Positions 3,621 through 63,449 of a DNA stretch of 64,000 nucleotides are shown here, one piece after another (position 1 is the stretch's first letter; every line of letters starts with the position of its first letter). The stretch lies in contig JAAILG010000883.1 in assembly GCA_012026655.1 (NCBI GenBank), positions 1 to 64,000 of the forward strand, in the 5' to 3' direction. The translations under genes and the position numbers were made by a program. The DNA is from Hydrolagus affinis. Lineage: Eukaryota. Under the pieces are notes generated by a model. It had not been told where the DNA came from and did no database searches. It saw only the letters and a list, made by a program, of their open reading frames with translations.

Positions 3621-5451
3621 TGCAAGACAGTAAATTTATCATTGAGCAGCTCTGCGTAATGTAATGGTTTTATTTGACTCCTTCATTGGAATCCAGTTCT
3701 TTCCTATTTATCACCCAAACATTGTTTTTGGCTCTGAGGCAAATTCAAGGTTCCCATGAATCTTATCTGTGAATTGTTTTGTCTTTAGCGCAATGTGAAG
3801 TCCCAAATTAATTCCAGAGTGACTAAAATTGTCAGCTTCACCATTTGTGGCATGTTCTTGCATTGGGAGCTCATCAGTTAGAATATGCTCAGTCAGGATG
3901 TGTAAAAGGAAAGCACACACCAGAGATTAGCAGTGCAGTCGGGTGAGGTGCAGAAAAAGGGGAAGATAAAGTTGAGGCGACGTTAAAAGACAAGACACCA
4001 TACTGAGAGATAAAGCTGGAACAAACTTTAATTGAACAGGCAACACCTAACAGAAAGGGCACTTTGGAAGTCAGCAGAATGTGCAGCTTTTACAATGGGG
4101 TCTTATGTGCAATAATCACAAATGGGATTTGAAGTGCTAATCGTGACTTATGTTTGCAAATATTGAAAGTCGTCTCATTTGTGCTCTTTGTAAAACATCA
4201 GCCACCGTTTTGTTCCCTGGCCTTTTCCAGCTTTTGGAATGCAATTAGCTGCTTTTCCAAACTGAGCCAATTCTCAAATCTTCAACATAGTGAGAACAGA
4301 GAGAAGGGAGAAGAGAGAGAGAGAGAGAATATTCTATAAGGCAACTCAGGGTGAGCTGCCAATTTAGTCAGCCTTGGAGAAATGGTTGGTGAGGGAAAAG
4401 AATCTTCAGTGGTTTTCCTGGAAACCAACATCATTTGGCAATTACATCTGGCACATTCAGCTCCTTCTGCAAATGAGGGCCAGAGAAAAATGCCCTCTGA
4501 TTCCAGACAAATTTAACAGGCGGGGTGCTGGAAAGGTTTTCCATCTGCTTAGTAACCTTTTAACCAGCCTACTGTGGATCCTTTGAGTATCTTGGTTACT
4601 GAGGAAAGATTTCTGGCAACAGGACAAAACTTGTCGAGATAAATCTCTCAGAAAAAGGAAATGCACAGCATAATTGATGCTCAAATAAAAGTGTGCCAAC
4701 ACTAGGAGAGAAGTGCTGACACGAAGTAACATTGCTTTTACACCTCCTCTCTGGAGAAATTCAGATTAGTAATTCCCCTTGTGTGGTCCTGACCGTGTAC
4801 TAAAAGTAAGCAAACTTTTGTCCAGGTGCCGATTTGCCATTGAATGCCAACAGAAAAGCCTAATAGCGTAGCGTGCATCAATTTGACTGTTTTTTGTGTG
4901 AAAGTTTTTTTATATAAACACCCTGAACTAAAACATACCAGTGTCATTCTACCACTTGTTTGAGGTCATTGTGAAGTAAGAGCCTTTCTTCCTCCTGAAA
5001 TGTTTTTTGTTGTCATATATTTATTCGTTGCTTTCTGGAGGGTGGGGGGTGGTGATGGTGAGGAGTGGTGGTGGGGGGATGTGGGTGGTGTTAGGGAAAG
5101 TTGAGCTCTATAAACTAATTATAAAAGTATACAGCTGAATTATCAAAACTATATATAGTAACGAGACCTTCAACAATCACTTATATGTTCCTGGGGTCAA
5201 GATCATTACAGTGTTAAATGTTCGGTGTGTGGAGCATGATGATATGAAACTCAAAACCAGCATCTAGGGGATTCAGTCACTGAAGAATTGACTCTAGACA
5301 GTAAGCAATACTGAATATGTTGCAGAAATCCTGTGCACCCTTCTGTCATTCCATTCAAATACACTGGTGCCTTGTTATAAAATGCTTCATTCAAATTTTT
5401 ATTTTCTTGACATTTACTCAAAATATCAGAACACATGTACCTGCTCTATCT

Positions 5452-5770
5452 CCCACAAAATACAGTAAAAGCCCGTTTGTCCGGCACCCTTAGGACCTGG
5501 CCAATGCCGGTTAAAGCGAGTGCCAGAAATTCGGCCGAAAACTGAAATTTTTTTTTTTTTAATGCATTTTTCCGGATAAATTCCGATTAATCGAATGCGG
5601 ACCTTTTCTTTGCGGTGCCGGTTATACAGAAGTTACGGTTGATCAGGTCATGGATAAGCAGGCTTTTACTGTATACAGTCTATTCGCGTTACAGTATATT
5701 CTGTGATGCGCTTTGAGACGTCTTGAAGATGTGATAAGGCGCTATAACACATGCAAGTATTATTATTATT
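5452..5770 (+). mobile_element. SINE 3' end interrupted by a MITE
   Basis: cccacaaaa-TA-[MITE]-TA-tacagtc...ctgtgatgcgctttgagacgtc...gataaggcgctata...tattattattatt. Removing the insert restores cccacaaaatatacagtc. Confidence 0.88.
5463..5671. mobile_element. 209-bp Tigger/pogo-like MITE with TA target-site duplication
   Basis: TIRs CAGTAAAAGCCCGTTTGTCCG and TGGATAAGCAGGCTTTTACTG (17/21 match, first 11 perfect). TA is present at 5461-5462 and 5672-5673. The interior is CpG-rich. Confidence 0.92.
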
Positions 5771-6189
5771 AATCTTATCACTGCTTCATCGCTTGTGCTC
5801 AGAAAGATCAGACGTCGGCTGACACGGCAAGCCAAAATGGTTGACTTGCAAAAACATCAGGTTGCTGCCGATATGACTCCTATGCATTGTGCATTTGTAG
5901 TGCACAGGAAGTAATACTGACAACCTGGTGACCTAGATGATGTCTCTTTTTGCTTACTCTGCTTCTTTCAATAAATTCTAGAACACTAACCATTGGTCAC
6001 TGGCGTGAATTTTTGGGATCCTAACTATTGTATTTATAAAGAGACTCCATGGAAGTAATGGATACAAATTGAAGGTTGTTAACCGAGGGAATTCATCTTA
6101 GTAGCCATTCGTGTCTCCAAGTGTATATGTTTGGGACAGTGATACTTGGGGTATCCTTCCGACATGAAGTATTCACCCATGCTCCATAT

Positions 6190-21430: not shown

Positions 21431-21617
21431 CTGAATCAATTTAATAAAAATAATCAAACAAAACCTGCAATTGTACTCTTTATAAGAAAATGCCACTGCT
21501 GGTGCAATATCATCGGAAAGGAAAAATTGCAAAAATTCAACTCAGAAACACACTATTGCAGGAGCCATTCTATGAAAGACCTTCAGCAAGAGCTGAATTG
21601 TGCTTCTTTTCCACATT

Positions 21618-21735
21618 AATGATAATAATAATCCTTTCATTTGCTATAGTACCTTATCGCGTCGTTGAGACGTCTCAAAGCACTTCACAGAATATATTGT
21701 AAAGTGAATTGACTGTATTTTGTGGGCTAAACATT
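21618..21735 (-). mobile_element. SINE 3' end ((TTA)n-tail family)
   Basis: ataataataatcctttcatttgctatagtaccttatcgcgtcgttgagacgtctcaaagcacttcacagaatatattgtaaagtgaattgactgta. Confidence 0.9.
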
Positions 21736-24040
21736 CAGCAGCTTGAGTGATTTTATCATAAAATAGAAAACTTTCTTGACTTGTAGGTAGGCATTTGCTG
21801 AAGTCCATTTATGGGAGACCTGGACTGCTTTGAATGAATATGTAAAATGTAATCTTGTACAAGGAGCTGCCAATGATACCAGTAATCTGTTTTACTGCTT
21901 TTTAAAAAAAAGCAGAATAACCTATAAAAATGTTAATTGAGGATTTAAACTTCATTGCAAATCCATGGGGGGAGCGGTGTATGGAAGTGGACATATGGTC
22001 AGAGATAAAGGTGACAGAGCAGTGATTATTCACACCAACATTATGTGGCCAATGCCAAATGTGCATTGGGAGATAAGCATAAACCCTTGGTGGCAAGAAT
22101 TCAATGGAGGCCAGAAGACAAGTTTTCAGTGTGAAGTGCTACTCATCATCTAGCAATTAGCACCTCATCATCTTAGGCTTTGTGACATCCAGCTGGCTGA
22201 AGGTGGCACCTACTACTTTAATATGGCTTTTCACATTGGGAGGGGGAGGGGGGAAGAGAGAAGGGAGGAACCATTGGGAGATGCGCAATTTCTTTTTAAT
22301 GTGCAGCTGGTGTTAACACTTAAATTTTACATTTTGAAAAGCGTTGACTAAATAAGAGTGCTAAGAGTTTCCTTTGCCGGATTGCGCTTATGAATTTTGC
22401 AACCACAAATCAAACTTTCTAACAATAAGTATTTCAGCACTGGTGACCAAATAATACTAACACAATAATTTCCCATGATGTCAAAATACCCACAACACTT
22501 TTTAATACACATATACATTACCTGTTGAGAAGACTTAAACATTCTTGCAGATAGATATATATGTTTTAATTCTCTCGACTAAATAATATTTTATGACCTT
22601 CCAGGGTCATAGCTCACCGAATAGCTTGTAACCTACAAATATGCAGTCACTACACTTGGCAGCAACTCCCCATGAAGTGCTTTGTGTCTTTCAATGTTAT
22701 TGGAGCTATTTCAAAGCAAGGATTAATCATTCAAAGAGAACCAGTCCCATAGATTTTAGTTCAATTTAACCCTTTAAGCACCACAGTGCAACGTGGCTTG
22801 TTTGCAGCTTATTGTAAGATGGTAAGAAATGCTCAAAATAGAAACAAAAATACCAAAATGCACTGGAAATTATAATAATAATAATTCATAGTCAATTGAG
22901 CCACAATTGGAAATAAAAAATCCTTGTTTGATCGTTTGGTTTCAGACGTTAGATACATAATGAAAGGCCCATAATGATTTTGTCCCCCACTTTCTCTCTT
23001 TTTCCAATACAGATTGAGATGCCGTGGATGTTTAGTTCTGTGTTTTTACTTCTTGTAAATTATTTTGTGTTGCCAATTTTATAATTTCAGTTTCTTTCAT
23101 TGTAACTGGATGGGAAAAAAAGCTTACAGAATTCATGGAGAAAATTCTAGAAGTGTTCCTTTAGAAACCGAGGGATATGACCCCCCCACCACCCTCCACA
23201 GCAACCATACACACGTACACAAATGATTTATACCATTGTGCAGGCAACAGCATGAAACAGCACCAGGATTGTATGAAAATGTACTAGCCTTGGGCAATTT
23301 GGATTTCTGGTGTATTTTATGTACACTATACCGAACAGTGTTAAGATTTATCCCTTGTTGCGGCAATAAAACACACACGGCAATAATTTGAAAAATTATT
23401 CGGAGAGCTTGGTTTGAGGCCCACATTTCTTTTTCCTCCCTCACCTTTTCCTCACAGTAACTGAATATCTGGTTAACTTTAAACACATCAAGGAATAATA
23501 AAGATCACTGAAAGTGGTGTTAATAAATCCACATGACTAAGATTTTCTTTCTTCATGCAAAAACTCTTTTCAATGACTTAACACTGAATACCATCTCAAA
23601 AATTACATTGAAGCTGAAATATTTCTCCTTAATTGTTAGCTTTTGTGTGGGTGTAAATGACTACTATACTACTGTAATTTTCATGCAATAACTTGTTGAT
23701 TAAATGAATGATTTTGAAACATTTTGTGCCATTTTACGTAATGCCTTGGCAAATGTTAAGATTTTTATTTGCCTGTAAGTGGGTTAAATATCTTTCTGAT
23801 CACATTACATCATTTGAAAATAGATATTAAAATGAGTTTGGTGAATTTGCATAATATACATCCATTCTTTGAATTTATGACTCAAAATTTTTAGCTAACA
23901 AGTAATTCTGAATCTTCTGGTCATTCAATCATCTCTGAAACAAAGTAGAAAGCTTTGCTGTAATGTTTATCTTTCCCTCTGTCCTGTTCTGTTAATAGCT
24001 GACAATAACTTTATATATCTGACGTAAGGCCGCTAATCAC

Positions 24041-35490: not shown

Positions 35491-35649
35491 GCTAAAATGG
35501 ACTTCAACATCTAAACTCCAAACTTACATTTATATAGCGCCTTTCACGTGGAGAGGACGTCCCAAGGCGCTGCTAAAATGGACTTCAACATCTAAACTCC
35601 AAACTTACATTTATATAGCGCCTTTCACGTGGAGAGGACGTCCCAAGGC
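35491..35649. repeat. Perfect tandem duplication, 78-bp unit with 81-bp period, containing a short antisense L2 tail
   Basis: 35491-35568 is identical to 35572-35649 (gctaaaatggacttc...ggacgtcccaaggc). Confidence 0.97.
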
Positions 35650-37944: not shown

Positions 37945-38886
37945 TGACCAGGACCGTTCTTTTCCACATCCGTCACATTATCCGCCTCCATCCGTACCTC
38001 ACAACCAATGCAGCAGAAACCATCTTCCCCACTTTTGTTACTTCCCAGCTGAACTATTTAGCTGTACTATTTAGAAGTCCTATAGCTCAGTGCTTAGACC
38101 ACTCAACTTGCAAGTGAGTGACCTGGGTTCGAATCCAGGCAGGTCAAAACCTTGGTCAAGTTTCCTTACTCCACAAGCCTAATAATAATCTGTCAAAAAA
38201 ACAATAATAATTTGGTCACTCAATCCAAGACTGTTTGTGGACACTGCTGTGCGCAATTGGCTGTCACATTTGTTCCACAAATATACAGTCAAGTCACTGT
38301 ACAGTGTATTCTTTGAAGTGCTTTGAGACTTCTAGAAGACATGAAAAGTGCTATATCAAACGCAAGGATTATTATTACTATCGCTATTACAATGCCTTCC
38401 TTGCTGGTCTCCTCAGCACCAAACTACGCAAAATTTAATTAATTAAAAACTCCACCGTATAAAACTCTGTACCCCCGTCACACCAGTCCTTGTCAGGCTC
38501 CATTGGCTCCCAGTTACCAAACAGATCGATTTCAAGATCCTCTCACTCGTTTTCAAATCCCTTCATGCCCTTGCACCTTCCTACCTACCCAATCTGACTC
38601 CAGCATCTACTGGCGTACCTTCGGCTGGCTCTGGCCTCCTCTTTGTTCCTCGTCCCCTCTGCTACACTATCAGTGCCTTCAGCCACTGTGCACCAAAACT
38701 CTGGAACTCTCTCCCTCAATCCCTCCACCTTGTTGTCTCCCTCCACTCTTTCAAATCCCATTTAAAGACCTTCCTTTTTTGATTGTGGGAATGTTCACCT
38801 CTCGCTTCCCTCTCTCTCTGTCAGACTCTGCAACTGTCGACGTTGCCCCACATGAAGGGTACTATATAAATGCAAGTTGTTGTTGT
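37945..38886 (+). mobile_element. L2-clade LINE 3' region (~0.6 kb net) interrupted by a SINE
   Basis: Translates FHIRHIIRLHPYLTTNAAETIFPTFVTSQLNY | YNAFLAGL..TKLRKI, compared with the L2 motif FHLRNIARIRPYL..AAE.LVHAFVTSRLDYCN.LLAGL. LHWLPV..RSISR-like sequence follows, and the tail is aaatgcaagttgttgttgt. Confidence 0.9.
38074..38378 (+). mobile_element. Full-length tRNA-derived SINE (~305 bp), tRNA-Ala(TGC)-like head, L2-type (TTA)n tail
   Basis: A box TAGCTCAGTG at 38083, anticodon-like loop CTTGCAA, B box GGTTCGAATCC at 38126-38136. The body and tail are shared with about 10 truncated copies in the window. Confidence 0.92.
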
Positions 38887-39249
38887 AGGATGAAAACTTG
38901 AGTAACACAAGAATATTGTGTTCCTATGCCAATTTTTGATGGTTAAACTGAATTGTTATAAAAAAGTCTGTAAAGGAAACATTTTACCAACCCTTTATCT
39001 GAAGTTTAATGGAGGTCTGTTCTTTAATTTATGTTCAGCTAAGATGTTTTAAACTAAAGAGATAAGTTTAAAGCTTGCTCCTTCTCTCTCTCTTTTCCCC
39101 CCTCCCCTAACTCTGTTCCCCCACAATGAACACTAATTTTTTCCCCTAAAAGCTGCCTTGGCACAGTTTTGTAGTTGCCAATACGACTTAGGTGCCTCTC
39201 CCACATGTTCATTCTTCTGTGTGAGTGAGACAGTTAATGGGGGAGAATT

Positions 39250-39430
39250 TCAATTGAGTCTATACTGTCTTCACTCAACTTCTGTAATTTCCAGTAGTAA
39301 TCACTGGTTATTGACCAGGAGCAGAAGCTCTTATGCTTATTTCTCCCTTGTCCAGGGCTCTGGGGCAATAAATCCAATTTTGGGACCCCAAATAAGATTT
39401 ACCAACTCAGCACACAGTGAAATTTAGACC
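39250..39430 (-). mobile_element. Family-X SINE-like copy
   Basis: The reverse complement reads ctgtgtgctgagttgg...attgg...tgcccc...cttctgctcctggtc...ccagtga...ctggaaa...gagtgaagacag. Confidence 0.65.
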
Positions 39431-39436
39431 CAATAA

Positions 39437-39567
39437 GCAATTGGCCACAGTGTTTCGCCCACAAAATATAGAGTCAATTCACTTTACATTATAGTGTATT
39501 CTGTGAAGCGCTTGGAGATATCTCAAAGATGTGATAAGGCACTATCAAATGCAAGGATTATTATTAA
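39437..39567 (+). mobile_element. SINE 3' half
   Basis: gcaattggccacagtgtttcgcccacaaaatatagagtcaattcactttac...ctgtgaagcgc...gataaggcactatcaaatgcaaggattattatt. Confidence 0.9.
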
Positions 39568-42500
39568 TACTTACTGTGCTGACCTCTGCTTTACTGTTAC
39601 CTTAAAATAGGCTTCATTCTTCACATGTGTGTTGTATTATATGTTTTTTTTTAATCTTCAACCTGTGTTACTTTTAACCCAAACCTATTGAGAGAACAAT
39701 AGATTAAATGTGTCTGGCTGTTGCAGTTTGCTGCTGTAGCCAGGCGAAACAGTGAAAGATTCTCAGTTAGCTTTCTTTTAATTATACACCAGGATACCTT
39801 AGAGCTGTGTGGTCTGGAAAAGGTCACTTGCCTGTGAAAATATGCTTGATCTTGAATGTATGTAACCAGATTGTTTTAAGGGATTCAGTTTGTGTGTTAT
39901 GAGGCCTGACCTTTTATGTCATGAATTTTCAAATGAGTTTGGGGAAGGATTGTCACTGCTGGTATGTACACTCCGAATATCCGTGCAGAATGGAAAAAGC
40001 AGTGTAATCATGTCAATAATTCCATGAGGGATTGGCAGATGCGGATGACACCTTTTGCAGATACCTTGCACAACAGAGCCAAACTGCTGGCGTCAGATAG
40101 CATATGTATTTTACTAATGGGATTTCATCTTTTCAGTAGAAAATGAGGTTGGTTTGAAATTTTTTTTAACTTATGACTGACAGTGTTATACAGTTCTTTG
40201 GCAAGGCAAATGTGTTGAAACTTGATGCTGAATGTTACAATTCAATTTAATTCAAACTGTAGAGGTGTAGAGTTATTTGGTCAATCTTGGATATAAAGGA
40301 TTACGATGGAACATATACTTGCTGTTCGGGTGTTGAGATACATATCCACCCAAATAGGCTGCTTCAAGTTTTAACTCTGGTTCAGCAGAGTTCCGATGAC
40401 GGAACATTTCTCTTCCATTCTCCAGTTTTCTGAAAGTGTTGATGCATTACTTGGATATGTCCCGATAGTTTTAAAGTTCAAATTCATCCAGAATTTTGTG
40501 GAAACTTCCTCAATTTTGAAGCTAGTTTTCTTTTTTAAGAATTGAAGAAAACTTTCTTCAAAAATGTTATTTTTATTTGAGCAAATTTGAGAAAATAATA
40601 ATGATGAATAACAATATTATTAATAATAATAAACGGCTATTTGCAGTACTGGCTGCAATACGTTTTAACTCATGTGACAGACTGAGGGAGAGGACGATTC
40701 AGTCTTGTGTCCTTGTTTCTGTCCGAGTGCTTGTTAGAACAACATTTGTTGCTACCACACTGCCCAAATGGAGGAGGAGTCATTCTTATTTCCAAATTTC
40801 TTATTTTCTTGGTTATTACTTAAAATCCTGTGTTTTTTTAACTTGATATCTGAGGACCGATGTCATCCTTTGCGATGAAAAGGCTTGTCTGCTCTCTGAG
40901 CTTTATACAGTACTGCTGCTAGATCAATATTTTAGAAGACTTGTGCGAAAACGTGTGGTGTAAACCCCAGTGATCGTGTTCTGCTGCCTCATCAATTCTT
41001 GGCTGGAGATCACATTTTGAACAGGTATCCTATGAATGTAAATGGGACTGCTTACCTCAGACAACTGCGGAATCTGCAGAAGCCCAATTGGGTTCTATGG
41101 AATCACAAGGGATCAATAGGAGCACGCTTTCACACATGAAAACATAATTATGGGATGATCTGAATGTGACATTGCGTCAGAATTATTAAATGAACACATC
41201 CTAATATAAAACAGCAATGTTGGATGTGCATGGCAGCGGCATTGGTTCAGGAGGTTGGGTTTGCACGGAGCTGAAGAGAAACTGCATCCATTGCGATGTG
41301 CCTTAGATCTGGTGAGTAACTACAGCTAGTGCGCAATGAAGTGGACCAGTGGGGACTCTGAGAAAAGAGTTGAGTTGAAAGCGTTATAAATAAATGCAGC
41401 AAGATAATTCTGATCTCTTCCTGACTTCACTTTTGGTTTTGTTCTGTATTTTGTTGCTTATTTTGTGGGAGAAGGAAAATGAAAGATCTCAGTCCTGGGA
41501 ATGGAACAGTTCCCGTTTCCAATTATTTGAAAGCATTTATATGCAAACTGTGTGTTGATGGCTCCATCTAGTACTTTAATCTGTTTCCAGTTTATTCCCC
41601 ATTTTGTGGTAGATGCCCCTACGCTATAGTTTGAGTTTGTTTAATAATCCCCTGACAATGGTTTGACACCTGGGCAAACCTCTCTATTTCTAAATTTTGT
41701 TTTCATTTATGCTTTGTGCCTGTGTTATTTCAGCATCTTCTGTATAATTCCCTTTGAATGATCTGCTCTGGTGTATTAGTTCAGTGCTGTTCTGTTAGCA
41801 GCTTCCACTTTGGTATATTTCTCATAAAACTGTCACAAGTATATTGGAGATTTAATTTCGCTTGGAGTATTCTGAATGCTGCGATGAATGTTGTGAAACC
41901 GATGTGCAATCTTAGGACAACGAAAACAAGGGCGTGTTCGGATCACATCTCCACTGAATACCCTCAACTAGATTGATAATATAGAAACCCGTTTTGTACC
42001 ACTTATGTCCCTGTCATGAGTGCATTATTTGTAGCAACTTAATAGAGCTGCAGGTTCTTTTGCGTAATTACTTATATCTCCCCCTGCAGGATAAATTAAC
42101 ACTTGGGACCTGAATAATGCTTGGTAAGACAATTTCACTGGAATTTACTTAATCAGTCTCATCATTTCCCCAGGTAGCTGTCTTTACCTGGTACAGAATG
42201 TGTGATAATCAGCAATAAGTCATTCTTAACTGTTGAGGGTTAATTAGGCAGCCCTTGTTGTTGGAAGTATGTAGAAAAAGCCTGACCTTCATTCTAAGGC
42301 TATGCAAAATATAATGGCATGCTTCACTGATATTACCTCCTACTGGGAATGGTTCGTTTTTTGGAGACAAAGCAGTTGCATGTTCTACCTTGGAAAATAT
42401 GTTATTATTAGCATACAGCAGAGGAATCACAATTTTCTGATAGTCTGGCTTTTGTCTATTCACATCACATCTACTCACTGCAATAAAAGAAGCAGACTAT

Positions 42501-43007
42501 TCAATTATGGAGGGCATCCGTGTCGACACACGTACAAAGCACACCCATGTGTACAGATGCACACAAAACACACATGCACGTACATCAGATAAACACGATA
42601 TGTACAATCACAAGCTACACACTTAAGTTTTCTATCTGGATTCTCGTACGGGCGAATGGAAGTGGGTAGGTAATGCTCACTACCTTTGGAGAAAGTCGTA
42701 AACCATGGTGGGTCAAACAAATCTGTTGCCCCGAAATCTGTCCTGCAAGGTAAGGTTAGATTCCCTAACGCCATGTCACGCTAGGAAACATGAAAAGGTT
42801 CAAAAGTACCCTCGGTGATACTTGCTATAGATGCAGGGGTTGAGGCCTCTTGCATCTACCTTCTGTTGACAAAGGGGTGTTAAATATAACAACTTGTGTT
42901 TATATTGTACTTCCCTTGGGGTAATGTCTCAGAGCGCTTCACAACGCTGAGCAAGTGAGAAGGGGAAGAGGGTTGAGGGGAACGTGAGCGAGGATACAGT
43001 TCTAAGA

Positions 43008-43205
43008 CAAAAACAGAAATCGCTGGGAACAACCAGCAGGTCAGGCAGCATCCATAGAGAAAGGAAACGTTCTGACGAAGAGTCATGGACCCGAAACGTT
43101 AACTCACTTTTCCTTTCTCCATAGATGCTGCCTGACCTGCTGGTTATTTCTAGTCATTTCTGTGTTTGTTTCAGATTTCCAGCATCCGCAGTAGTTTGCA
43201 TTTCT
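43008..43205 (+). mobile_element. Short non-autonomous Penelope-like element: inverted (hairpin) pseudo-LTR fragment with 14-bp TSD
   Basis: 61-bp inverted arms at 43007-43067 and 43109-43169 (53/61 matches). TSD atacagt(t/g)ctaaga at 42994-43007 and 43206-43219. Confidence 0.8.
43069..43103 (+). ncRNA. Minimal type I hammerhead ribozyme motif
   Basis: gtt-CTGACGA-a-gagtc atg gaccc-GAAA-cgtt-aac. Both catalytic boxes are present. Stem II has 4/5 pairs, stem III is a palindromic ACGT, and stem I is 3 bp. Confidence 0.7.
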
Positions 43206-44091
43206 ATACAGTGCTAAGAGTTCATTTTTAGGCAAGATTAAAAACAGATAGTGGAGACAAGATAGCTGAAGATTTAGCCACTAATTGTGACTCATAGAGT
43301 GTTTAGAGGCACTCAAACAAAGCAAATAAAGCAATACAAACAATATTTGCAGAAAATCTAGTAGCCATAGATGTACATAGCATGTGTGGTCTTTAAATGT
43401 GGGGGACAATTACATTTTAATGTGTGATTTAGGGTTGATACAAATCCATACCCGTGACGTTCCCTACAAATCCCCCCACAGCAGTGAAGATACCAATTTT
43501 TTTTTGCTTGTCTGTAAATTTATCTAAAATCTGCAAGTGGAAATTTGCATTAAAATGGACGAGAGTGACATTGAAATGATTGGGTGAAAATCGAGATTTA
43601 AACATTTACATATAAAATATATTTGACATCTCCGTGACTGGCTTTTGAGTGGATTTTGACTGTATATTTTTGTTCACTGAATAGCCATGTATATCTTCTC
43701 TGGTGTGCGCACGGGGTCAATAAATGGGAGCAAAATCATGCACAGAGGGTTCTGGTATGAACCTGTGTTTAATATATGGTTCAGGTTGTACACAGCAAGT
43801 GCTATTTATGGGCCTATTTTACATAATTGAAATGGTAGTGCTTGCCTCTACATCAGCAGGTCTGCACGGGCACAAATGTAAGGAATCCCCCAGACAGGTA
43901 ACTGCTGTACCACTTTCTGAGTTGAAAGTTTGCAGATGAATGTAATATGCTGGAAAGTTGCCGTCAGTGGGCTGTGCTCTATTCAAAATGCCTGATTTTT
44001 CAACTGAGGTGGAACAAGCGCACATTGATTTGAATTGGTGACGTATCTCATTGGTCGACATTGCAGATACAGCAGGTCAGGGCGGTACGAT

Positions 44092-46759: not shown

Positions 46760-46945
46760 GACAAAAGCAGAAAATATACTTTGAACCTAAATCCTGTATG
46801 ACTGGATTTAGGTTTGATGCTTTTAATTTTGGGGGGTTCTGAGCAGTTCCACCTAAAACTTCAATCTGTCTCTTTAGATAATACGGGACATTCTGGCATT
46901 TTCCGTTTCTATTTCAGATTTCCAGCATTCAGAGTCTTATCTTTC
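46760..46945 (+). mobile_element. Degraded copy of the Penelope-like hairpin element
   Basis: ttctggcattttccgtttctatttcagatttccagcattcagagt shares tttcagatttccagcat with 43169-43185. The hammerhead boxes are decayed (ttctgagca...cctaaaac). Confidence 0.6.
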
Positions 46946-60142: not shown

Positions 60143-60260
60143 TAAAATAATAATAATAATCCTTGCATTTGATATAGCGCTTTTCACATCTTATCGACGT
60201 CCCAAAGCGCTTCACAGAATATACTGTAAAGTGAATTGACTGTATATATTTGTGGGTGAA
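60143..60260 (-). mobile_element. SINE 3' end, young
   Basis: aataataataataatccttgcatttgatatagcgcttttcacatc...gacgtcccaaagcgcttcacagaatatactgtaaagtgaattgactgtata. Confidence 0.92.
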
Positions 60261-60344
60261 AAGTCCACATCATGCAAAATATAAATTGACTAAAGTAGAA
60301 GATTGTACCATCAGGAGTTAAACCTTCACTATTGTACCAACCAT

Positions 60345-60497: not shown

Positions 60498-62887
60498 TAG
60501 TGTGGATCACTCATGTATTATTGTATAAGCGTCTAATTTGCAATGTTTTAAAGAGATCTCTTTTTATAATGAAATCCAAATCACCCACATGGAGACAGCA
60601 TGGACCAACAAGAACCCAGCTTCATGGAATCTGTTTGGAATTCCAATTAAAAATCCTACAATTTAGAGAACCCATAAAACACCAGCTTTTGACCTATTTT
60701 CATCAATAATATTTTTTAAACCACATTACAGAATCAGTCTGTCGTTTTATTTGAAAATATTGAAATTACTCTTCATTAAAAATGACTGCAAGCTCACACT
60801 TGAATGTGTACACTGCATGACTAGGAATGTATTTAAAATAAAAATACCAAGAAAGGTAGGTGGATTTAAATTATATTTGAAATTAGAGTTAAATGTTTGA
60901 ATAATTATTAATTTAAGAGTTTTCCCATTTAAAAAAAAATCACAGTCAATTGAGAAATACTATCTGTTAGAGTTAGTTTTCATATCCTAACCAGTGACAA
61001 TTCTCTGCTGTTCAGTCTGCTTTGTCATAACGTTTTAGGAGAAAAATCAAATACTCGGGTACGTGTAAATCTCGGATAGGAAGAAGTGACCATTTTGCTA
61101 CACAAGGAAGTCTGGGGTTTGTGTTATCATCTTTGCTAGTCAGCCTTGAGTGAAGGATCCCCATGGTTTTAACAAAGCATCTGCTACAGAACTGGTCCAT
61201 CAGTCCATTAACTCGCTGACTGGAATGTGAGGGTGGACTGGCAGGTCATTTAAATACTGTACGCTATGGTGTTTGGGCTGTGTCCAGTGATCAATGCCTC
61301 AATAGCAGAAAAGTCCATAACTGTCCATGGGTATCGTACACAGTGAAGTAATTGAACATAGGTCAAAGCAAAAAAAACTTGCAAGGTAGCATGCATGTTT
61401 TATTAACCCTTTATGCTCTGTGCTACGTTTACAGTTTGGTTTTTGTGTAAGACGGTATGCAAGAGTGATGTTTGTGGAGCAAAAATGTGAATTTGGTGAC
61501 AATGTTGTCCAGTCAACTAGGGCTGGTTTGGATTTCTGTTAACTCTGTCACAGTACAGTTAAAGATGTATGTGCTGTGATGTGGGAGTCATAGATGTAGA
61601 AGCAACATGCAATAATGCAATATTGCAATAGTGCAATATATCTGCCCTATGTGGGACAAACAAGCACAGGGGTTTGCTTTGAATGCGCACAATGTAGATC
61701 ACCCATCCTTGTATGAGGATGATTGTAGACAGAGCTATGATGTCGCTCATGACCGATGCTTACTCTCTGTTTTTCGTAGACTTATACATAAAGAACAGCT
61801 TGGGTAAAACAGTTCACACGTCCTGTAGGATCTTGTAGCATGAATCTGTGGTTTCAAAGCAAATAAGCACTTGTTTGGAAAGGGGGCTAATGTAAATATA
61901 TAATTTACTCCTTGCCCATTTTTGACTTTTCCAAAAAATAGAAGTTTGCCACTGCAATGTTGTATTGTGTCCCTGTATCCTTCTCCAAATTGCACCTCAG
62001 ATTGGTACCTACGATTATCGGAGCTGGTTATCTGTGCAATATGCTGAAAGCTTTTCTACGAGCATCATGACAAGCAAATTGGCCCATCCCTGTGCTTTGT
62101 TACAAGCAGAGCCAGACTTACTGACTCTTCCGTGCATGCAAAGAGGAATGATGTATTAAAGACAGCACTCGGGATTGGATATTTCCTGCTTGCCTAGGTC
62201 AATCATAAGTGCCCTATATGCATCTGAACCTTGTACACCCAGGCAAGCTGCGCCGGCCGGTATAGATGTGAGAAAAAATTGCTCTGACATTTCCTATGGT
62301 TGGGGTGATGCTTGTTAGCTGAATAGCAATTCAGCAGATCTCAATTCTTTTTTTATGTCTTAACACGCATTCTGTAAGTTCATCAGCGGACAACTGTCAA
62401 CTTTTTCCTCAGATTGCACAAAATCGTGCAATGTGTAAAACTTAGTTTATTACCCCAGTTTGAATTTGATGTTTAAAAAAATGAACCTGTGGTTTGAGCC
62501 ACTTTTTGTTTGAGGTGGGGGGGAAAGTATCGATCTGTGCATTGTGTGTATCGGGCATGCAGAAAATTGATTGACTGTAATATTCAAATCTATGAAATCA
62601 AATGATTTAGGGATGAAGTTAGATTGGAGTATATGGAAGAAGTTTTGAAAGATATAGAGAGAGGGGAAGTGTAAATGCAGAACATTTTTATAGAAGAGCT
62701 GGGAGAAAATCAGCCTCAGTGAACAACCAGCAGGGAAGGATCAGCTTAATGAGGAATTATAGCGCAGACCGAATGAAAATCAGCAATGAATCTGGTGGAA
62801 TTGAGAAGACACTGCACAAACTACACACATAACCACAGTTATTGAAAGGGTAACATGAGATTAAGATTCATAGTTTTATAGTTTACG

Positions 62888-62995
62888 TCCACAAAATGCA
62901 CAGCCAAATTCACTTTACAGTACATTCTGTGAAACGCTTTGAGGCATCTCAAACATGATAAGGCACTATATCAAATGCAAGGATTATTATTATTA
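62888..62995 (+). mobile_element. SINE 3' end
   Basis: ccacaaaatgcacagccaaattcactttacagtacattctgtgaaacgctttgag...gataaggcactatatcaaatgcaaggattattattatt. Confidence 0.9.
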
Positions 62996-63449
62996 CATGT
63001 TTTTGCAGTCACAAATTTACAGACGGCAAACAGTATTTCCCACTCTCCCCAAAGTTAAATTACATGATTTTTTTTGTAATTTAAAAGACATTCCAGGACC
63101 AATTTCTGTGCTCGAATAAAACTGCAAGTAAGACTGGAACGTACAGCTCTTCAAGCATCTTTCTCCCCAATAGGAAGAACTGTAAATTTTGTATGTCACA
63201 ATGTTTTTCTCCTTTGGTTAAGGGTGGGATAGTCACACTAATTCCTCTCTTGGCCGCCAGAATGAGTGATGGATTGAGGATGTAACATGCTTTCCCTCCC
63301 CCACTCTTCCACTTCCTTGTCAAAAGATTATGGGGCAAAGTTATTTCTTGATGCTTTAAATAAAGTAAATAATCCCAATGGAAACATCAAGTGAAAGGTG
63401 GCTACATGGAAGGGAATTTCAGAGAAAGTATTCGGTCAACTGAGTATCT

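Follow-up and report, generated by a model that had tools for sequence, protein, structure and literature searches.

Penelope-like elements (PLEs) that encode an endonuclease (EN+ PLEs) insert as a unit composed of a pLTR and an adjacent inverted, 5'-truncated copy, with a tail of 30-40 bp at one end and a target site duplication, TSD (PMC3846280, PMC8557442; for the tail see also PMC11167929; these and the other publications are cited from the parts available to us). The terminal unit of rotifer elements has been described as shared between consecutive copies, closing one and opening the following one (PMC3846280), and a Zn-finger-like linker between the reverse transcriptase (RT) and the endonuclease (EN) is a mark of Neptune and Nematis (PMC8557442). 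How the inverted ends and tails come about is treated as an unsolved question in PMC8557442 and has been worked out in part in vitro: the protein of an anole PLE cuts a nick into each strand and extends from it, reverse transcription begins at two internal positions on either side of the tail, and the template is mainly RNA that has not been cut, ribozyme cleavage not being required (PMC11167929). The Penelope element of D. virilis has an internal promoter, and its transcription starts within the pLTR (PMC2377424).

We report that the window, i.e. the stretch of 64,000 nucleotides of Hydrolagus affinis DNA analysed here, carries a hairpin insertion of 198 bp (43008-43205) between 14-bp direct repeats. 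With a probability that we put at roughly 0.88, this hairpin results from one old event in which the end of an abundant Penelope-like element was inserted, likely by two-strand nicking and double RNA copying, with a ribozyme that is predicted to be inactive. The 14-bp TSD with one mismatch described in an earlier note on this DNA was recovered (left, 42994..43007; right, 43206..43219; features are on the + strand unless otherwise given), and it is the only such pair in the window when 14-mers with at most one mismatch at a spacing of 205-220 nt are compared (1 of 1,020,320 pairs). The forward copy (43069..43205, 137 nt; profile E 4.7e-42) consists of the pLTR head and the tail; it agrees with the family majority at 120 of 134 positions, is 85% identical to the 3' end of a copy that carries RT and EN (L159), and begins 3 nt before core C3 (position -3), which is a hot spot for 5' ends in the family. 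The left arm (43008..43067, - strand) is an inverted, tail-less and 5'-truncated second copy of the element end, as identified by profile, alignment and a GGTT subfamily marker present in both parts. When 43008-43068 is compared with 43108-43168 the arms match at 52 of 61 positions, and the hairpin folds at -99.9 kcal/mol (z -10.9; none of 200 shuffles as good). The arms of the earlier note are therefore real, while its lengths, 61 bp around a 41-nt loop, are inconsistent by one or two because a loop of 41 nt needs 60-bp arms and 61-bp arms leave 39 nt. The note had also passed over the diagnostic part of the insertion, an unpaired tail of 37 nt (43169..43205) that is present at one end only and, judging from the arm pairing, has no partner in the left arm. 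An ATG-started open frame of 27 codons (43125..43205) runs through this tail and, as read from the sequence, is possibly the start of the element's ORF. The unit also has two strong splice-acceptor-like motifs, a pyrimidine tract with TAG preceding the ATG (43104-43124) and TTTCAG at the start of the tail (43157-43174), and sense-strand intronic copies could therefore be exonised. Three decayed relatives had been suggested in the window; one of them is a separate, strongly decayed family fragment that covers the 3' part and has no ribozyme (46867..46935; profile E 3.5e-5, against E 2 for the best match in the reversed window), while 22830-23050 and 41640-41730 gave no match to the family profile at E<=5. 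A near-palindrome of 31 bp (46784-46814) is located just upstream of the fragment.

The forward copy opens with a minimal type I hammerhead motif (43069..43103), supported by sequence, family columns and a fold test. Stem I is 3 bp long (43069-71/43101-03), the core CTGACGA (43072-78) is followed by an extra A (43079), stem II has 5 bp (43080-84/43088-92) with an A-C mismatch where the family has G-C, and GAAA (43093-96) and the palindromic ACGT (43096-99) precede a GUU ending at 43100, with a predicted cut after U43100. The boxes, the extra A, stem II, ACGT and GUU are all located where the earlier note had placed them, and its assignment to the minimal type I class stands on the CUGANGA and GAAA boxes, the NUH site, the extra nucleotide at 9/10.1 and the palindromic 15.2-16.2, which the window copy shares with the family majority. 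An Rfam scan of the window gave no hammerhead match at E<=5, its MIR1507 and mir-3202 matches are hairpin look-alikes far below the gathering scores, and a search of both strands of the insertion found no second ribozyme core. In a folding test the hammerhead-competent fold of the window copy costs 6.8 kcal/mol and the stem I pairs have a probability below 0.5%, as calculated with energies that leave out tertiary contacts, dimers and help from protein. The doubt already raised about the activity of this damaged copy is borne out by the A-C mismatch and the predicted misfolding; on the folding model its ribozyme is predicted to be an inactive passenger motif. The anole ribozyme required protein (PMC11167929).

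In the family majority the hammerhead is complete, with a 5-bp stem II, the extra A, a palindromic ACGU and the GUU site. Among 62 family copies that were not picked on the core, the core is intact in 27 and accompanied by a full stem II in 16, and the decay is mostly by CpG transitions. The stem II pairs are retained by 52-56 of 61-62 copies, and their changes are again mostly CpG transitions. At the second pair we counted 25 double changes (15 Watson-Crick, 4 wobble and 6 unpaired). Of the Watson-Crick changes nine are A-U, an outcome of two transitions in any case, and five are U-A, at probably four distinct loci. The separate loci L267, L277, L278 and L279, with U-A in place of the second G-C, possibly represent a minor subfamily with a compensatory change, as far as can be told from their sequences.

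It is very improbable that a host function, namely the cutting or regulation of a pre-mRNA from the + strand, has preserved the ribozyme of the window copy. Both catalytic boxes are intact, as is the GUU site, and the insertion is old and shared, since both junctions are present in contigs of another sequencing run in which the flanks differ by 2-3%; the distance of 15% between the arms together with these flank differences also indicates an old insertion. However, stem II has lost one G-C pair, the arms differ at 9 of 61 positions and the TSD at 1 of 14, as under neutral decay, and an intact core is not unusual because 27 of the 62 unselected copies keep it. The active fold is moreover predicted to be disfavoured, single minimal hammerheads showed no cleavage in PMC4209133, and a Pfam scan of 20 of the 48 long open frames in the window identified no host gene. 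One candidate, a TPK_B1_binding (thiamin pyrophosphokinase B1-binding) match at 39137-39424, was sub-threshold (E 0.009) and is probably due to chance. Among the sequencing runs listed as containing the sequence there was no RNA run. Three RNA runs, all of one sample labelled as another organism, were uninformative for the locus: their reads, from either strand, covered repeats alone, the unique flanks had none, and ends did not pile up in the element. As to other repeats in the window, a tRNA-derived SINE-like repeat is present at 38076-38381 (Rfam tRNA 28 bits at 38076-38147, below threshold; no tRNA predicted there by ARAGORN), with partial copies at 2395-2502, 5672-5771, 21617-21733, 39437-39577, 60145-60261 and 62881-62996, and a dispersed repeat contains a perfect 78-bp tandem duplication (35491-35649).

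A DNA search of the species' own genome (1.11 Gb) returned 3,854 candidates, of which 40 were scored. For the intact ribozyme pattern of 32 nt we counted 515 exact matches, and for the ribozyme head of 15 nt 4,736, with none in the reversed controls, and after correction for per-base decay we estimate approximately 16,000 family heads. All samples of copies discussed here are the first-listed matches on long contigs and not random draws. Seventy copies were selected by the ribozyme. Some of them carry additional upstream sequence of various lengths, and in two this sequence goes as far as the end of a GIY-YIG frame, at a distance of about 270 nt; following pattern-picked copies upstream in this way uncovered the partner with RT and GIY-YIG that the earlier note had envisaged. 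When 30 loci were selected by their endonuclease DNA, 26 proved to carry the terminal unit on the same strand, at most 700 nt downstream, which ties it to the RT + GIY-YIG gene of an abundant Penelope-like element and upholds the link to Penelope drawn before. One copy (L159) has an inverted tail-less arm followed by a 5'-truncated RT-EN-ribozyme-tail copy, i.e. the anatomy of the window insertion with a long forward part. Its RT stretch has three matches to RVT_1-bearing proteins (best E 7e-31) and no score with Pfam alone; another copy (L160) scores for GIY-YIG above the Pfam cut-off. RT and GIY-YIG were thus seen in family copies and not in the window copy, and among the long copies examined none is intact and full-length, every ORF being broken.

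A C-x4-C-x2-C linker precedes the endonuclease in L161, is present in decayed form in L160 and was not found in L162 and L163; judged by its motif, this type of linker points to a place of the family in Neptune or Nematis. In L020, L010, L166 and L167 the unit and tail run on into ORF-proximal sequence (in L167 across a foreign insert). The unit follows EN and its tail continues toward the 5' part of the ORF, and it therefore ends one copy and starts the next. Short and long copies carry the same subfamily markers, and those with the GGTT marker of the window include long ones that extend from 139 to at least 373 nt upstream. A first GIY-YIG search had led to a different PLE family (L031-L054), in which the ribozyme unit was linked at 0 of 24 loci. 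This second family looks younger, with near-identical GIY-YIG frames (e.g. G000:C36220:3215-6305) and a Zn-finger-like linker, it often adjoins a short-period tandem repeat, and two of its members (L044 and L046) have a possible decayed CTGATGA...GAAA motif. Several loci (L055, L071, L012, L020, L243 and others) show an apparent insertion at the same TTCACTTTACAGT site of a common tRNA-derived SINE-like repeat, and this shared site suggests a possible target preference of the family.

The earlier note had left a choice between an independent non-autonomous hairpin unit and a single truncated-inverted insertion, and proposed that a recurring arm/loop junction would tell them apart. No recurrence at unrelated sites was found in the genome-wide check: the exact junction of the window is unique among 14 near-matches, and 54 two-part copies have 51 distinct end pairs. 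A match of about 80-87% over the full 198 nt is seen in many copies of the genome, and the forward start and the outer end of the arm are nearly invariant, as a 198-bp element moving as a unit with a fixed junction would predict; these matches were, however, selected for likeness to the window copy. The one junction that is shared (L002 and L003) comes with shared flanks, the inverted arm is present in only 64 of 140 pattern-picked copies, and the tail is on the inverted part in 17 of 37 insertions. Long copies with the GGTT marker likewise speak against an independent unit, which is already largely refuted and has in our opinion scarcely any chance of being correct, while the private junction, the TSD and the family membership agree on a single truncated-inverted insertion.

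TSDs were detected in 60 of 140 copies, as compared to 1.5% in mispaired controls, and went undetected in the other 80; they are 9-17 bp long, mostly 11-15. The 3' ends fall into two clusters approximately 35 nt apart, near +94 to +101 and +130 to +139, and every TSD-bounded two-part insertion (37/37) has exactly one tailed and one tail-less end, the tail being on the anchored copy in 20 and on its partner in 17. Scoring by profile ends alone gave an apparent tail at each end in 2 of 64 two-part copies, and the number was higher with a noisier profile. The markers of the two arms agree in 25 of 27 two-part copies, including that of the window. We suggest that the enzyme of the element would nick both DNA strands about 14 bp apart and copy one RNA twice. 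The first cDNA would start at the end of the tail and run off at the 5' end of the RNA, which would lie 3 nt ahead of the ribozyme core. The second would begin 37 nt further in and stop after about 60 nt, and the two would be joined head to head, with gap filling to yield the TSD. With both strands nicked and the same RNA copied twice, the hairpin would be a by-product of integration. The rule of one tailed and one tail-less end matches the two RT start sites of the lizard element (PMC11167929); this model of two-strand priming derives from a Poseidon element in vitro, and the family here has a Neptune-type linker. As an alternative, inverted junctions may arise through self-priming on an antisense template (PMC3846280).

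The 5' ends give a second regularity. Of 70 copies selected by a motif located downstream of the ribozyme, 30 have their 5' end at -8..+1 of core C3 against 2.5 expected from the rate elsewhere (p ~1e-22), and the inverted partners, which were unselected, begin there in 11 of 29 and 10 of 25 cases; local alignment ends are imprecise by a few bases. Around the cut site (after +28), at +26..+35, only 1 of the 70 copies begins, and RNA templates defined by cleavage were rejected on this basis. The piling up of 5' ends at the 5' edge of the ribozyme instead of the cut site suggests run-off of RT at the 5' end of uncut RNA. We give an even chance to the hot spot being such a run-off site, i.e. likely the point where the RNA of the element begins, a reading that takes the RNA end from genomic copies. 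At the start of the window copy, CCAGTTC fits the initiator consensus YYANWYY. An extra G precedes 11 of 22 copies that start with A (p 0.02; p 0.04 for 10 of 21 once an arm-derived case is left out); for copies that start with G the figure is 14 of 33 (p 0.11), and a cap-derived G is only weakly suggested.

A less probable explanation, although one to be taken seriously, is that RT stalls at the edge of the ribozyme or that the hot spot marks a 3' splice site (CCCCAG/TT) to which other exons are joined. The upstream sequence resembles a pyrimidine tract with CAG, and the letters at -5..-3 (C/G, A, G) look like exon ends when set against the exon-end consensus. An intron of D. virilis also ends at the 5' end of helix I (PMC4209133). 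Against this, no upstream exon is shared, the letters upstream of the head being down to background by -6 and outwards, and the TSD is at most 15 nt from the head in 17 of 22 solo hot-spot copies with a repeat scoring at least 10 (51 examined), which therefore leaves no room for captured exons. The capture of host exons through a splice acceptor is consequently unsupported, and a structural stall would be expected at the 3' side of the ribozyme.

Run-off at the RNA 5' end leads to a broader reading, to which we give slightly less than an even chance, namely that RT starting within the first 100-140 nt of a capped mRNA mass-produces some ten thousand mini-copies and that the tail rule records a dimeric enzyme. 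Most events would then copy only to the RNA 5' end because RT starts inside these first 100-140 nt. We consider it unlikely that the forward unit of about 140 nt was instead copied from short non-autonomous masters (SINE- or retrozyme-like), with the arm arising at integration. Such masters would fit the 74 of 103 ribozyme heads that stop within 4 templated bases of the head and the 4,736 exact heads as compared to 369 with nine more upstream bases, and animal retrozymes have been proposed as PLE derivatives (10.64898/2026.07.22.740005). Short and long copies have subfamily markers in common, however, including the GGTT of the window, the profile match lists showed, on inspection, no head-to-tail array made of the short unit, and there is no pile-up at the cut site such as a cleaved linear monomer would give. 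If RT does start inside the first part of the mRNA, the mini-copies would combine ribozyme and promoter with neither a non-autonomous master nor ribozyme cleavage, and the tail rule would be the trace of a dimeric enzyme that primes both strands by way of the two start sites.

The window locus is an ordinary dead insertion, and the end statistics of the family matter more. Its thousands of copies are an in vivo record of two fixed 3' ends, one of each per two-part insertion, of TSDs of about 14 bp, and of 5' ends at the edge of the ribozyme instead of the cut site. If the hot spot is indeed the transcript start, this would explain the abundance of lone minimal hammerheads in animal genomes, and the individual stubs could serve as scattered promoter seeds. 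In the PLE literature that we surveyed such a 5'-end hot spot is not described; Arkhipova 2006, Evgen'ev and Arkhipova 2005 and the supplements may bear on it.

Among known systems, the non-LTR retrozymes (PMC7229834, 10.64898/2026.07.22.740005) are alike in being short, non-coding and PLE-related with a type I hammerhead. They are tandem arrays with one ribozyme per unit, whereas the window insertion is single and head-to-head, has a TSD and contains one ribozyme; with no tandem units and no second core on either strand, identity with a retrozyme was rejected. With the minimal hammerheads of metazoan PLE pLTRs, as far as covered by the available text of PMC4209133, the motif has in common the conserved boxes, the extra nucleotide between 9 and 10.1, G10.1-C11.1, the palindromic 15.2-16.2 and a short helix I. 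Stem II has 5 bp here and 7-8 bp in the Schistosoma families of that study, and the window copy differs in its A-C mismatch and a stem I of only 3 bp. In Poseidon PAc of Anolis carolinensis (PMC11167929), as here, two RT starts bound the tail, a short distance after a hammerhead located where the ORF begins, and in neither case is there a sign of cleaved RNA as template in the material at hand. The two starts come from in vitro data for PAc and from genomic ends in our case; unlike PAc, the present family has the C-x4-C-x2-C linker, and the accessible text on PAc does not mention a 5'-end hot spot. The EN+ PLEs (PMC3846280, PMC8557442) are alike in having a head-to-head inverted truncated copy, a tail at one end only (37 nt here), a TSD, a pLTR and tail running into the ORF start, and RT followed by GIY-YIG. 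From the examples in these papers, as available to us, the present family differs in its TSDs, mostly 11-15 bp as compared to 8-10 bp in rotifer EN+ PLEs, and in that most of its copies are 100-140 nt long, with one start spot and an estimated 16,000 or so heads.
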